Notes under the pieces: model-generated
The model's database searches: none
What the model saw: the letters and a program-made list of their open reading frames with translations, nothing else
What the model was told of the DNA's origin: nothing
Shown here: positions 39,407 to 50,469 of the stretch, in pieces
Position numbering within the stretch: the first letter of the stretch is position 1
Layout: each line of letters opens with the position of its first letter
NCBI GenBank assembly: GCA_017471825.1
Contig: JAFURQ010000007.1
Coordinates: 28,036-92,035, forward strand
Direction of reading: 5' to 3'
Origin: Clostridia bacterium
GTDB taxonomy: Bacteria; Bacillota; Clostridia; Oscillospirales; CAG-272
Length of the DNA stretch: 64,000 nucleotides
Program-made: the position numbers and the translations under genes

Positions 39407-40351
39407 ATGAAATCTGCATACGATGGCAAGGAGCCATATATTTTCATAAGCTATTCACACAGAGATACGGATATTGTCTACCAAGTTATAGATTACCTAA
39501 CAGACCGCGGATTCCGCGTCTGGTATGACGGCGGAATCGAGGCAGGAAGCGAATGGCCCGAATACGTAGCATCACATCTTCGCGGAAGCAATTGCGTGCT
39601 TTCCTTTGTTTCGAAAAATTTCGTTGCTTCCAAAAACTGCAGAAGAGAGCTTAATTTCGCACAGGACCTCGAAAAGCCGATGCTCAACGTTTTCATAGAG
39701 GACACAGAACTTTCAGACGGAATGAAAATGCAGCTCGGACTCAATCAGGCGGTTTTCAGATGGAAATTCCCCACCGATGAGGACTTTTTCGAGGCTATTG
39801 CGTGTGCAAAAATCGTTGAGGCGTGCCGCTCATATACCAAGGACCCCGAGGATGCAATCACAGTAAGCATACCCCAGACGATGATCGACGATCTCAAAAA
39901 GGATGAGACACCGATCGCTAAGGAGGAGCCGGCTCCGCAGCAGACCACCTACGACAAGCGCGCATACGCCAAGGTAACTGCTCTGTCCTGGATATGCGGA
40001 CTTATTGCCTTTTCATACGCGGCACTTGAGCCGTGGGTTATGCATTTAGCAACGGGCAATTACATAAACGTTGTTCTGCTGATACTGTTTACCGCGCTCC
40101 CCGCTCCCCTGCTCTGCGTGCTTGCAAGAGTTATCTATTCGGCAGGCTCCAAATCGTTAGGCAGTAACTCGCGCAAGGAGATTTCGGATGCGATAGCAGC
40201 AGGCTGGCTCATCAGCTTTGTAGTCGTGCTCGTCGCGTGTCCCTTCTTCGTTCATACGACCTCAAGCGTTATATTGAAGATACTCATTTCTCTCGGTCTT
40301 AATGCTCTGCCGTTTATTATCTCGGCAATGATTCTTCCGACCGACAGCTAA
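39407..40351 (+). CDS. TIR-domain protein with about four C-terminal transmembrane helices
   Basis: YIFISYSHRD, GFRVWYDGGIEAG, S.NF..S.NCRRELNFA; hydrophobic C-terminal third. Confidence 0.85.
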   Translation: MKSAYDGKEPYIFISYSHRDTDIVYQVIDYLTDRGFRVWYDGGIEAGSEWPEYVASHLRGSNCVLSFVSKNFVASKNCRRELNFAQDLEKPMLNVFIEDTELSDGMKMQLGLNQAVFRWKFPTDEDFFEAIACAKIVEACRSYTKDPEDAITVSIPQTMIDDLKKDETPIAKEEPAPQQTTYDKRAYAKVTALSWICGLIAFSYAALEPWVMHLATGNYINVVLLILFTALPAPLLCVLARVIYSAGSKSLGSNSRKEISDAIAAGWLISFVVVLVACPFFVHTTSSVILKILISLGLNALPFIISAMILPTDS

Positions 40352-45664: not shown

Positions 45665-45883
45665 TCATTTAATCTTTCTCGGTGTGTCGATAAATCCCGC
45701 AAGATAATCAAGAGAAACGTTATAGTATTTTGCCAAAGCAACCATACGGTCAAACGGAATAGCTCTTTTGCCATTTTCATACTGCGCGTAATAGGATTGG
45801 CTGGTACCTATAATTTTTGCAATCTCTGCCTGACTCTTATCAGAATCCTCTCGCAGATCCTTTAGTCTTTGATATACGCTCAT
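45665..45883 (-). CDS. Small XRE-family HTH regulator
   Basis: RLKDLRED...SQAEIA..IG.SQS.Y..YENGKR...LAKYYNVSLDYL. Confidence 0.9.
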   Translation of the reverse strand: MSVYQRLKDLREDSDKSQAEIAKIIGTSQSYYAQYENGKRAIPFDRMVALAKYYNVSLDYLAGFIDTPRKIK

Positions 45884-46007: not shown

Positions 46008-46280
46008 ATGAGAGAAACACTTGAAAAGCTATGGAACGAATATTTTTCAGACGAATGTGCCGTAATCGATACGGACGAAGAACGAAAATTAACGAAAAAG
46101 GCGGTAGAAATGCACGAAAAAGCAAATGCTTTACTTAACAAAGAACAAGAGGATGCCATAGAAAAATACATCGACTCCTTGTGCGACATTGAAGCACACT
46201 TTGTTAAAAAGGCGTTTTTTAAGGGGTGTGAATTTGCAATCTCGTTTCTCGCAGAAACGGGAAATTTATGGAATGCTTAA
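46008..46280 (+). CDS. Small helical hypothetical protein (DUF6809-like)
   Basis: 90 aa; 'L.KLW...E.......L...L..EQ......Y.D.......F.KG...A..F..E' pattern; family name from memory. Confidence 0.55.
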   Translation: MRETLEKLWNEYFSDECAVIDTDEERKLTKKAVEMHEKANALLNKEQEDAIEKYIDSLCDIEAHFVKKAFFKGCEFAISFLAETGNLWNA

Positions 46281-47779: not shown

Positions 47780-47933
47780 GGTGCTTCTCCTTGCCGAAAT
47801 TTTAATAGCAATTTGCTTTGTAATAATTATATATAAAATCGAAATAAAAGTCAATCCACACTCACACTTTTTCCATAATGCAATATAATAAGAAGGAAGA
47901 TGTGCAAAACTTTCTGAAAAAGAGAAAAAACCC

Positions 47934-47962
47934 TTGACAAATCCGAAAGCCTTTGCTATAAT
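47934..47962 (+). promoter_or_regulatory. Consensus promoter of tRNA-Cys
   Basis: TTGACA-17 nt-TATAAT with extended TG. Confidence 0.85.
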
Positions 47963-47981
47963 ATTAAAGCACGATAAATAC

Positions 47982-48056
47982 GGCGCCATGGCCAAGCGGT
48001 AAGGCAAAGCTCTGCAAAAGCTTCATTCCCCAGTTCAAATCTGGGTGGCGCCTCCA
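47982..48056 (+). tRNA. tRNA-Cys(GCA)
   Basis: GGCGCCA/TGGCGCC acceptor stem, AAGCT-CTGCAAA-AGCTT anticodon arm, TTCAAAT T-loop, U discriminator and encoded CCA. Confidence 0.97.
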
Positions 48057-48096
48057 AACAAAAGAGCACTGCGAGAGCAGTGCTCTTTTGTTTGGA
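48053..48096 (+). terminator. Perfect 20-bp hairpin overlapping the tRNA CCA end
   Basis: TCCAAACAAAAGAGCACTGC-gaga-GCAGTGCTCTTTTGTTTGGA. Confidence 0.8.
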
Positions 48097-48097
48097 A

Positions 48098-48259
48098 ATG
48101 AAGCGCGCTAACGCGCACGAAAAATGAAGCAGGTCTTCGCCCTATGAAGCGAGCCTTCGGCTCACGGAGAGATTAGTGTGCGCTTTGCTTCACGGCGGCA
48201 ACTCCGCCGCTTCATACGAGCGTAGCGAGTGCTTCATATCGACGAAGTCGATGCTTCAT
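48098..48259. repeat. ATGAAGC/GCTTCAT periodic multi-hairpin array (candidate structured RNA or protein-binding array)
   Basis: ATGAAGC at 48098, 48124, 48144; GCTTCA(T/C) at 48187, 48209, 48231, 48253; hairpins between the units. Confidence 0.8.
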
Positions 48260-48287
48260 TGACAAAACGTTGGTTTTATGTTATGCT
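48259..48287 (+). promoter_or_regulatory. Promoter of the four-helix-bundle gene
   Basis: TTGACA(48259)-17 nt-TATGCT(48282) with extended TG; the -35 overlaps the last GCTTCAT. Confidence 0.7.
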
Positions 48288-48309
48288 TTATTCCAAGGAC
48301 GGTGATATT

Positions 48310-48663
48310 ATGGCAAACGATAAGCTTTCGGAACAATCTATGGATTTTGCAGTTCAAATTATCAATCTCGTTAAGCAATTAAAAGAGCAACGCGAGAGTA
48401 TTATTTCCAATCAGATCGGAAGAAGCGGAACGTCAATCGGTGCGAACATTTATGAAGCCAAATATGCACATGGTACGGCGGATTTTATCTCTAAAATGCA
48501 GATTGCGCTCAAAGAGGCGAACGAAACGGGGTATTGGTTAGAGTTGCTTTACAAAACCAATTACATCGAAGAGAAACAGTATAATTTTCTTGAATCAAAA
48601 TGTAAATCTCTCCGAGCTATGCTTGTTTCCTCAATCAACACCGCAAAAAATAATAACAAATAA
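48310..48663 (+). CDS. Four helix bundle protein (TIGR02436 / 23S-IVS protein / Avd-like fold)
   Basis: S..FAV.II.L...L......IS.QI.RSGTSIGANI.EA......DF..K..IALKEANET.YWL.LL signature. Confidence 0.9.
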   Translation: MANDKLSEQSMDFAVQIINLVKQLKEQRESIISNQIGRSGTSIGANIYEAKYAHGTADFISKMQIALKEANETGYWLELLYKTNYIEEKQYNFLESKCKSLRAMLVSSINTAKNNNK

Positions 48664-48687
48664 ACTTCCTTTCGGTATAAAAGAAAT

Positions 48688-48726
48688 ACAAAAATAACAG
48701 CCGCTTCAATGCGGCTGTTATTTTTG
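48688..48726. terminator. Bidirectional terminator
   Basis: CAAAAATAACAGCCGC-ttcaat-GCGGCTGTTATTTTTG. Confidence 0.8.
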
Positions 48727-48876
48727 CTTATTTGGATTATCTAATATACCGAGGATATAATCAACCGAAACGCCGTAAAAATCGGAGAGCTTTATAAGTA
48801 TATCGGTCGGAATATCCCTTTGCCCGAGCTCGTAATTGCTGTATACCTGCTGTGAGCAGTTGAGCGCGGCGGCAAG
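48718..48876 (-). pseudogene. 5'-truncated XRE gene, inverted paralog of 50254..50469
   Basis: Manual translation LAAALNCSQQVYSNYELGQRDIPTDILIKLSDFYGVSVDYILGILDNPNKQK*; in-frame stop upstream and no start codon. Confidence 0.85.
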
Positions 48877-48965: not shown

Positions 48966-50141
48966 TTACAGAAAATAGCTTAGAATCACATATGCAATAG
49001 GTATAATTGAAATGCCAAAAAAAGAACCTACGGTAATGCTTGGATAAAAAGTCACGGAAAAGTCCTCAGGAATTTTCTTCTCTAATATGCATAGCTTTGC
49101 TTTTTGTAAAACAGCCGTACATTCTTCTATCGCCGCTTTATCTGCGGTTATTCCCTTTGCACAGTTAACAATTGATAGAATAGCACAAATTACAGCCGGA
49201 AGGATACCATAAAACAAAAGATGGTCTATAATCATACTGTTTTCTTGTGGTGATGTTTCTTGAAACATGTACCAAACAACTCTAATCAATGTAAAAAATG
49301 CTATAAGAATTGCCGACAAAATTGCGACCGTTGCGCGTACTTTATCCTTTTTAAACTTTTTAATTGTTGTCTCACATTTTTCCTCTATCTCTTTGCACTT
49401 GTCCAAAATTTGTTTTAAATCTATCTGAAAGAAATCTACATCGTAAAAGAATCCATCTGCATCAGATTCAAAGCTATATGCTATGTCGTTATAAACAAAT
49501 TTAATCTCATAAAGTGCATAAATATATGCATTGAATGAATAGGGATCATGTGTAGAAATTTCAGTGGAACGAATTTCACTATTCATAATTTCAGCAGTAG
49601 AAGAATAAATCAAATCGTTTCTGTCATAATCGACACACTCGCTGGCAAATTTTCTTATTACATTTTTATTGAGGGATATTTCATGAAACAGATTATCTAT
49701 TCCGTAGGGATTTCTTTCTTCAAAGTCATCAGGATCTATCCAACATGCTTCATACGAAGATATCACAGATGCATTATTGCATTCAGCACAAATAAAATAC
49801 GTTTCATCATAATATAAGGTTTCTGTATGATCTTCTGTAAGTGTTGTTTTATTATAATGTGGGGACACACTAATTCCCTCTTTGTCTGATAAATTAACTC
49901 GATAATCCTCTACATAGGTCAATTCTTTTCTTGTTTTATAATCTACTACACATCGTGCTGAACAATCCAAAGACAACGCCTGATAATATTTGGGAGTAAC
50001 CGTGAAATTGTTAGGGTTCTTTAAAAATTCCAAATATCGCTGTGAAGCGCGGCTGATATCCTTTCCCTGCAATGCAGTTTTTCTAAAATTTTCAACTATT
50101 TCGTTTTTTCCTATTGATCTTTTGTAATAAAAAACTTCCAT
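48966..50141 (-). CDS. AT-rich hypothetical protein with three C-terminal TM segments (likely horizontally acquired)
   Basis: 391-aa ORF, AGGAG RBS, visibly lower GC than the flanks; no family recognised. Confidence 0.7.
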   Translation of the reverse strand: MEVFYYKRSIGKNEIVENFRKTALQGKDISRASQRYLEFLKNPNNFTVTPKYYQALSLDCSARCVVDYKTRKELTYVEDYRVNLSDKEGISVSPHYNKTTLTEDHTETLYYDETYFICAECNNASVISSYEACWIDPDDFEERNPYGIDNLFHEISLNKNVIRKFASECVDYDRNDLIYSSTAEIMNSEIRSTEISTHDPYSFNAYIYALYEIKFVYNDIAYSFESDADGFFYDVDFFQIDLKQILDKCKEIEEKCETTIKKFKKDKVRATVAILSAILIAFFTLIRVVWYMFQETSPQENSMIIDHLLFYGILPAVICAILSIVNCAKGITADKAAIEECTAVLQKAKLCILEKKIPEDFSVTFYPSITVGSFFGISIIPIAYVILSYFL

Positions 50142-50253: not shown

Positions 50254-50469
50254 ATGGTCTATAGAAGAATTCGAGATTTACGAGAAGATCACGATTTAAC
50301 TCAAAAAGAGGTAGCAAGAAAATTGAATTGCTCTCAACAGGTTTATAGCAATTACGAACTTGGGCAGAGAGATATTCCCACAGATATACTAATTAAAATT
50401 TCGGCTCTATACAATGTATCTGTTGATTATATCCTTGGTATAAGCGACAACCCTAAGATACAAAAATAA
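50254..50469 (+). CDS. Small XRE-family HTH regulator
   Basis: RIRDLREDHDLTQKEVA..L.CSQQVYSNYELG.RDIP...YNVSVDYILG. Confidence 0.92.
   Translation: MVYRRIRDLREDHDLTQKEVARKLNCSQQVYSNYELGQRDIPTDILIKISALYNVSVDYILGISDNPKIQK

Follow-up and report, generated by a model that had tools for sequence, protein, structure and literature searches.

The four-helix-bundle proteins of the PF05635/TIGR02436 family are very common in bacteria and include members with solved structures, and to our knowledge they have no known function outside diversity-generating retroelements (DGRs). Repetitive extragenic palindromic (REP) sequences, bacterial interspersed mosaic elements (BIMEs) and REP doublets forming hairpins (REPINs) consist of palindromic units with a conserved flanking motif, dispersed in intergenic regions in inverted sets, and the genes of their REP-associated tyrosine transposases (RAYTs) are flanked by their own repeat type, which varies with the gene clade. 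Iteron-controlled rep genes and the heptad operators of the omega repressor have direct repeats of ~22 bp or contiguous 7-bp heptads, with inverted copies present, before the promoter of the gene thought to bind them. The PF05635 family was discovered within intervening sequences of 23S rRNA, to which its Pfam name refers, and it shares a homologous four-helix-bundle fold with the DGR protein Avd (PMC10053308). The available part of a study of a DGR complex describes an Avd pentamer that touches an RNA stem-loop with all five protomers, with flipped-out bases between protomers (bioRxiv 10.1101/2023.10.23.563531). The motif GCGNAGC forms mini-hairpins that are extraordinarily stable as DNA and much weaker as RNA, and these are known from early promoters of N4 and from single-strand initiation signals, among them ssiA of RSF1010 and the origin of phage G4 (PMC13037366). 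The present study concerns a locus in a 64,000-nt stretch of DNA from a Clostridia bacterium (GenBank assembly GCA_017471825.1, contig JAFURQ010000007.1, positions 28,036 to 92,035; hereafter the window), in which an array of 7-nt words and small hairpins lies between the 3' end of a tRNA-Cys gene and a PF05635/TIGR02436 gene. The explanation favoured here, which is held with about as much doubt as belief, is that array and gene form one cassette, the protein of which assembles into a ring and binds its own words where the nucleic acid is locally unpaired, beside its promoter.

The locus resembles 23S rRNA intervening sequences with an open reading frame (ORF; 23S_rRNA_IVP) in its protein family, in being a small cassette on a stable-RNA gene and in its inverted repeats, and some relatives have the gene between inverted heptamer runs. 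Unlike those sequences, it lies outside any RNA gene, behind the tRNA terminator and in a window without rRNA, and it has both arms upstream of the gene, hairpin-spaced words, its own promoter-like site and arms on opposite strands. With Avd it shares the homologous bundle, and the Avd pentamer on its cis-encoded stem-loop may have a counterpart in the modelled self-association of the window protein. It differs from the Avd system in that no reverse transcriptase (RT) domain was found in the scanned ORFs of the window (template and variable repeats were not searched for) and in that the putative target is a set of repeated words and mini-hairpins upstream of the gene, possibly as DNA. As in REP, BIME and REPIN elements, palindromic units occur dispersed and in inverted sets, whereas the associated gene encodes a 117-aa helical bundle rather than an HUH nuclease and the units are 7-nt words plus 11- to 18-nt hairpins. 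Repeats with a ~22-bp period, or heptads, just upstream of the gene's promoter recall iteron rep genes and omega repressor operators; however, the spacers here are hairpins kept by compensating changes, the fold is unrelated to winged-helix Rep or ribbon-helix-helix proteins, and the cassettes are chromosomal and multicopy. The strand-specific GCGNAGC motif is shared with the DNA mini-hairpin signals in the part of PMC13037366 that was available, but here arrays of six to eight hairpins alternate with a word beside a four-helix-bundle gene, and the scanned ORFs revealed neither a primase nor a phage polymerase. A literature search, with supplementary files outside its reach, found no paper that connects the PF05635/TIGR02436 family with tRNA flanks or with arrays of words or hairpins.

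Linkage of the array to the four-helix-bundle gene and to stable-RNA genes

Homologues of the window's protein were found in 255 of the 401 genomes of the window's bacterial family. Seventy loci were sampled, comprising the 30 best-scoring and 40 hand-picked further down the list (53 to 73% identity), and 64 were usable after six with <250 nt of upstream sequence had been set aside. An automated search requiring a word at least twice in each orientation detected a two-armed array upstream of the gene in 62 of these 64 loci, including L216, to which the search assigned a palindromic artefact and which was read by eye. The two misses, L170 and L172, show decayed remnants, and the L172 gene carries an in-frame TAG. 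The order of parts is constant, running from a terminator hairpin through the distal arm, the center, the proximal arm, a promoter-like site and a ribosome-binding site to the gene. The window's genome encodes three PF05635 proteins; two of the genes adjoin two-armed arrays, and the third has a one-armed array. The coupling of array and gene that had been proposed in a preliminary description of this DNA is therefore borne out by the 62 loci.

Upstream sequence of at least 400 nt was available for 57 loci, and 46 of them have a same-strand tRNA or transfer-messenger RNA (tmRNA) gene 5' of the array, the criterion being a stable-RNA gene that ends no more than 420 nt before the start codon; the distance is mostly 255 to 290 nt. 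Sixteen kinds of stable-RNA gene precede cassettes, and at a Victivallaceae locus the gene is tRNA-His. Both the gene link and the tRNA link are real. An association with tRNA 3' ends had been claimed in the preliminary description, and these counts agree with it. The arrays are confined neither to tRNAs nor to the gene, and solo copies exist.

In the window, a promoter-like site (TTGACA-17-TATAAT, 12 of 12 positions by sequence match) at 47934 to 47962 (+) precedes the tRNA-Cys (GCA) gene at 47982 to 48056 (+), whose last bases are the start of the cassette. A 20-bp perfect hairpin at 48053 to 48096, consisting of an A-run, a stem and a T-run, takes in the CCA end of the tRNA and is terminator-like on both strands. 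Beyond the array, the promoter-like site of the four-helix-bundle gene (TTGACA-17-TATGCT with TG) is located at 48259 to 48287 (+), and its position is kept in the loci of relatives. It starts on the base with which the last word ends, so the overlap of the last repeat with the -35 element that had been claimed amounts to one shared base at 48259. The gene itself occupies 48310 to 48663 (+), encodes 117 aa and was assigned to PF05635/TIGR02436 by profile matches, and a terminator-like hairpin (48689 to 48726) follows it. The window and L164, which lies behind tRNA-Thr in another genus, have an identical terminator starting from the last tRNA bases, and their proteins are 96% identical. Among loci with different flanks, DNA similarity spans from that terminator to ~80 nt past the stop codon, which indicates a unit of ~0.7 kb. 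The proposed cassette of this size would comprise the terminator hairpin, distal arm, center, proximal arm, promoter, gene and terminator, and would sit directly at the tRNA or tmRNA 3' end.

Between tRNA-Glu and the third four-helix-bundle paralogue of the window's genome, a long inverted repeat (GGAGGGATTCGA...TCGAATCCCTCC) at 76540 to 76360 (-) of contig C19 encloses hairpins and is followed by a second terminator.

Hairpins, opposite-strand arms and words

The distal (left) arm at 48098 to 48163 contains ATGAAGC words at 48098, 48124 and 48144 and a degenerate word (ACGAAAA) at 48117, together with hairpins A (48105 to 48116), B (48131 to 48143) and C (48151 to 48163), which look optimized for the - strand; ACGGAG follows at 48164. 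The proximal (right, gene-side) arm at 48187 to 48259 contains GCTTCAC at 48187 and GCTTCAT at 48209, 48231 and 48253, with an exact 22-nt period, and its hairpins D (48194 to 48208, GGCGG..CCGCC), E (48216 to 48230, ACGAGCGTAGCGAGT) and F (48238 to 48252, ATCGAC..GTCGAT) look optimized for the + strand. The coordinates of words, hairpins and spacers in the preliminary description hold base for base; its "imperfect spacer" was correctly placed, but is in fact hairpin E, a stem-loop (ACGAGCGTAGCGAGT) with two adjacent (tandem) G.A mismatches. The 23-nt center (48164 to 48186) holds the 3' side of a helix, P1, in which 48178 to 48186 (GTGCGCTTT) is complementary to 48100 to 48108 (GAAGCGCGC) with two G.T pairs and which competes with hairpin A. 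The heptamer occurs 18 times in the window versus 9.45 expected, a number reached in none of 100 shuffles, and six copies fall inside 162 nt. The fold of the array has z-scores of -3.0 (+ strand) and -4.3 (- strand) against shuffles. An Rfam search of the whole 64-kb window at gathering thresholds returned only tRNA-Cys and no rRNA, and a permissive scan of 47800 to 48800 found only the tRNA, the best match on the array being Gut-1 with 19.5 bits versus the 50 needed; the array thus has no Rfam match in either scan.

Among 26 aligned canonical arrays, pairing in the six hairpins amounts to 92.7%, compared with 29 to 42% for slid-partner controls, and 29 of 34 hairpin pairs show changes on both sides (138 cells), which none of 500 shuffles reached. 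Covariation had been named as a check on the array, and these compensating changes supply it; they also agree with the earlier remark that the repeat is conserved while the hairpin sequences differ. Helix P1, formed by the first word and the 5' half of hairpin A with the center, is 96.2% paired in the same arrays and has three compensating pairs. It recurs in other clades with quite different sequences. Over 58 loci, the longest complementary stretch averages 8.8 nt versus 4.5 nt when shuffled, and it is at least 9 bp in 33 loci; the parser for P1 missed the GTGAAG clade, whose first unit uses a variant word, and those loci were read by eye. One alignment column covaries both with its hairpin-A partner and with its P1 partner, which indicates that two alternative pairings are both kept.

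The two arms differ in strand preference when their hairpins are read on the gene-sense strand. Loops of the distal arm (112 hairpins) are T..C in 73 and G..A in 11 cases, whereas those of the proximal arm (110 hairpins) are G..A in 43 and T..C in 5. Non-Watson-Crick stem pairs of the distal arm comprise 12 of the C.T, T.C, A.C or C.A type and 1 G.G, with no G.T, and those of the proximal arm comprise 11 G.T, 10 G.A, one A.A and one T.T, with no A.C or C.T; G.T and G.A mismatches thus occur in the proximal arm only on the sense strand (21) and in the distal arm only on the antisense strand (12). The motif GCGN(1-2)AGC is found in the distal arm 62 times on the antisense versus 5 times on the sense strand and in the proximal arm 36 times on the sense versus 2 times on the antisense strand, and these counts are reversed in an arm-flipped clade. 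The split of loops, mismatches and motifs indicates that the unit is 5'-word-hairpin-3' and that the arms are on opposite strands. The preliminary description had instead envisaged a single-strand ladder in which left and right heptamers pair. Although this is the minimum-energy fold, it was rejected as the main structure, as the arms are optimized on opposite strands and the first word pairs with the center, and the ladder model is probably wrong; within one clade such pairing is beyond the reach of covariation because the words are invariant there.

The same observations bear on the possibility that the array is the RNA processing signal of an intervening-sequence-like cassette, in which words in read-through transcripts would pair as a ladder or long helix and be cut by host RNases, freeing the cassette RNA from the tRNA precursor. 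The inverted word sets, which the predicted fold pairs, and the position of the cassettes next to stable-RNA genes are consistent with this, as is the first discovery of the protein family in 23S rRNA intervening sequences (PMC10053308, available in part). In the relatives L229, L236, L239, L240, L262, L264 and L267, moreover, the gene is located between two inverted heptamer runs, and in L267 it is hairpin-spaced arms that bracket it. In the clade of the window, however, both arms are upstream of the gene, which is not bracketed (3' of the array the heptamer occurs only at 48452, within the gene, and next at 49747), a strong terminator precedes them, and the gene is equipped with a promoter-like site of its own. 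The hairpins are optimized on opposite strands, the first word pairs with the center and not with the last word, and 7-bp helices broken by junctions are generally poor substrates for double-strand RNases. This explanation is considered quite unlikely.

The mini-hairpins also raise the question of a single-strand initiation or origin-like element, in which those on opposite strands would be priming or loading signals and the 22-bp-spaced words would be iterons. Such motifs are present in the G4 origin, ssiA and N4 early promoters, as noted above from PMC13037366, available in part. The period of the proximal arm has its mode at 22 (47 intervals), and the gene adjoins its repeats, as in iteron replicons. 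Against this, the cassettes are chromosomal with up to 11 copies per genome, those of the tRNA-Cys cluster look vertically kept across genera, relatives use heptads without hairpins, and no primase or Rep-type gene was found among the 17 ORF products scanned (37.9 to 57 kb). An origin-like role is thus regarded as very improbable. An iteron origin with a rep gene was rejected as an identification, since the period fits but the neighboring gene belongs to PF05635 and not to a Rep family, and a CRISPR (clustered regularly interspaced short palindromic repeats) array was rejected with a repeat of 7 nt (CRISPR repeats are at least 23 nt), palindromic spacers and no cas domain in the scanned ORFs.

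The words differ between protein clades and include ATGAAGC, GTGAAGY, AATGAAGA, ATGATGT, GTGATG, AGCTAAAT, GATGAAATC and the arm-flipped ACATCATT type. On a quick protein tree with many unresolved forks, the word classes cluster, requiring 16 changes versus 46.9 when shuffled (0 of 200 shuffles reached this). Paralogues within one genome also differ in word, with three in the window's genome, four kinds in G279 and six kinds in G002, several of which are contiguous heptads. Within one array, the words are uniform while the spacers differ. This uniformity is not required by pairing between the arms and points to a reader with one specificity per paralogue, for which the adjacent four-helix-bundle protein would be the obvious candidate.

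Dispersal of arrays and turnover at the tRNA-Cys site

A three-word pattern was detected in 53 of the 401 genomes of the bacterial family, representing 35 of 97 genera, while a reversed-pattern control gave 2 hits; in two of the 53 genomes (G091 and G317) the matches are coding or simple repeats. Matches reach 18 per genome and are frequently at contig ends. The window's genome has a second copy on contig C5 with the same order of parts and different hairpin stems, which sits behind the rplM-rpsI terminator without an adjacent tRNA or four-helix-bundle gene, and a word-array detector found four non-low-complexity arrays in this genome (1.63 Mb), two adjoining PF05635 genes and two solo. Solo copies, for which a search had been suggested, are therefore present, including the one next to rpsI. 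In public genomes, at least 120 stretches matched the pattern and 80 were listed, of which only loci with palindromic spacers were used. Among the matches listed, arrays occur in records titled Acutalibacteraceae, Oscillospiraceae, Eubacteriales and Clostridia and, in another phylum, in records titled Lentisphaeria, Victivallaceae and Kiritimatiellia; many of the matches listed are coding or simple tandem repeats in unrelated taxa and are attributed to chance. The Victivallaceae locus has the same array with a 68%-identical protein. Solo and half arrays occupy varied intergenic sites and are often fused with other repeat modules, much like BIME and REPIN elements.

Turnover was also seen at the tRNA-Cys gene itself. 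Of nine tRNA-Cys sites in the genus of the window, a single one, at a contig end, carries this array; a different array with only one arm occupies three, another repeat element two and plain heptads two, and one site is empty. The four-helix-bundle gene was found in none of the nine. The variable occupancy within a genus indicates that the module moves or turns over, in line with the mobility that the preliminary description had thought possible.

These observations could be explained if the array were a mobile noncoding repeat, similar to a miniature inverted-repeat transposable element (MITE), BIME or REPIN, whose arms are ends or units for a recombinase or a replicative process and whose gene is a passenger or neighbor rather than a reader. 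The number of genomes, genera and copies, the frequent position at contig ends, the varied and fused solo and half arrays, the arrays without the gene in G023, the differently occupied tRNA-Cys site in nine species of the genus and the occurrence of array and protein in Victivallaceae are all compatible with mobility, and the arms show two-fold symmetry, DNA contigs break at the array and read depth rises there. However, no transposase or integrase was found in or near the cassette in the scanned ORFs, and the Y1 transposase family (PF01797) has no hits in the array-rich genomes G023, G094 and G229. Inverted arms are present as in MITEs, but no regular target duplication was seen, without a systematic search having been made, and the sole flanking direct repeat seen, at L167, is 45 nt long. 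In addition, the word shifts with protein clade and paralogue, which a shared host enzyme would not explain. A purely mobile repeat is therefore thought unlikely.

Mobilization of the RAYT type is not supported; apart from the three genomes without PF01797 hits, there is one hit in the window's genome (G000, contig C4, away from the arrays) and one weak hit in G234. The domain scan of the window covered 17 ORF products between 37.9 and 57 kb and found no RT, integrase, transposase or cas domain, in agreement with the earlier statement that no RT, integrase or cas gene is nearby; 10 of 23 ORFs of at least 150 aa were scanned, and the others overlap those in other frames. Integrase-type insertion was rejected, as the partial tRNA-Cys 3' ends seen in L062 and L166 are part of a different repeat element and not of this cassette. 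This second repeat family, which is ~170 nt long, hairpin-rich and ends in a partial tRNA-Cys 3' end, was observed at 870 to 1215 in L166, at 5100 to 5260 in L062 and after tRNA-Cys in L280 and L287; in L287 it lies between two copies of the tRNA terminator. In L281 and L288, which belong to the same genus, runs of TACCTCT heptads follow tRNA-Cys, with the inverse further on, and no PF05635 gene was detected in the locus.

Several other features were observed around the arrays. On contig C5 of the window's genome (L002), directly 5' of the solo array, the 3' end of rpsI is duplicated (1024 to 1078 and 1269 to 1323) around an insert of ~180 nt; either an insertion that produced a long target duplication or an artefact of assembly could explain this. 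In G023, a conserved module of ~35 nt (GCGGGCGCCCGATGGGACGCCCCTACC...) lies 5' of the distal arm in several half arrays (L247 to L250). Just past the cassette terminator in the window, 48721 to 48861 (-) encodes a truncated copy (residues 25 to 71, 85% identity) of the XRE-type helix-turn-helix (HTH) protein encoded at 50254 to 50466, which indicates that the right flank has been rearranged. Elsewhere in the window, 39407 to 40348 (+) encodes a 314-aa protein with an N-terminal TIR domain (E value, 3.2e-20) between galT and a dihydrouridine synthase gene, a possible defense gene, and an XRE-type HTH gene at 45668 to 45883 (-) is divergent from a DUF6809 gene at 46008 to 46277 (+), a pair that looks regulatory or toxin-antitoxin-like.

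The protein and the proposed recognition of words

The window's protein matches PF05635 with an E value of 2.3e-28 (99 bits versus a cutoff of 33.8) and TIGR02436 with 110 bits versus a cutoff of 24. Its closest solved relative is PDB entry 2RLD (E value, 1.9e-31), which contains 5 chains. Modelling of four copies predicted a head-to-tail self-association with a score of 0.79 versus 0.40 for the best control, contacts that agree by at least 97% across runs and a partner predicted local distance difference test (pLDDT) value of at least 89, although this may be memory of solved pentamers; in a calibration with 30 solved pairs and 23 single chains, 20 of the pairs and 1 of the chains reached the mark. 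The model shows likeness to the solved members and not binding.

Other PF05635 genes, in G002 and in genomes of Lentisphaerota, have runs of contiguous heptads upstream, and the inverse run is often 3' of the gene. Folded hairpins would set words side by side, as they are in contiguous heptads, and the two arrangements would be equivalent only on a single strand. As periods of 7 bp and 22 bp are not equivalent on duplex DNA, the comparison suggests a single-stranded target. In the favored explanation, the protein would be a ring oligomer like Avd that recognizes its own 7-nt word, with about one word per protomer. Each arm would consist of three or four units of 5'-word-hairpin-3', the two arms being on opposite strands, and the small hairpins would fold out so that successive words become adjacent and are recognized on locally unpaired nucleic acid. 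The target is slightly more likely to be extruded DNA mini-hairpins than RNA, because GCGNAGC is far more stable as DNA than as RNA. By binding beside the -35 element of its own gene, the protein would be autoregulated, and the arrays without the gene may be derived copies that spread on their own.

Several observations weigh against this explanation. In its one solved complex, as described in the available part of the source, Avd binds RNA and not DNA hairpins (bioRxiv 10.1101/2023.10.23.563531). No promoter accounts for antisense transcription of the distal arm, and extrusion of 5- to 7-bp hairpins in vivo is assumed. The G.T and A.C pairs in helix P1 (56 versus 46) indicate no strand. Linkage would by itself lead words to cluster on the protein tree, as neighboring DNA and gene diverge together. 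Furthermore, G023, which is 94% complete, has 13 matches to the word pattern and no detectable homologue of the protein, and the 18 matches in G094 are accompanied by no closer protein than one of 75% identity, whose word differs slightly, which indicates that arrays can persist or spread without a cognate gene. The RNA libraries X15 and X20 yielded low-depth contigs, derived from relatives, that cover the tRNA and a portion of the distal arm and carry no strand or end information.

A broader proposal, which is possible but put forward only tentatively, is that the PF05635 family is a large set of nucleic-acid readers with word specificity, that every paralogue has its own 7-nt word, displayed in contiguous heptads or else flanked by extruded DNA mini-hairpins on opposite strands of the two arms, and that the cassette is a self-maintaining colonist of stable-RNA 3' flanks. 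The cassette might also act as a sensor of DNA supercoiling in the interval from a tRNA gene with strong transcription to its own promoter. To what is described for related elements, this locus adds the hairpin-spaced form with both arms upstream, the opposite-strand mini-hairpin signature, helix P1, the exact junction with the tRNA 3' end and the paralogue-specific words. The word array before each gene is a concrete candidate ligand for the protein, and paralogues with different words are natural specificity controls. If the proposed binding is true, it would account for one class of the repeats found between genes of gut Clostridia and Lentisphaerota, could provide orthogonal small DNA- or RNA-binding modules and would link the cassettes to the long-unexplained ORFs of rRNA intervening sequences. 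If the broader proposal is also true, Avd, the heptamer repeats of bacteria and those ORFs would all belong to a single system of recognition between protein and nucleic acid.

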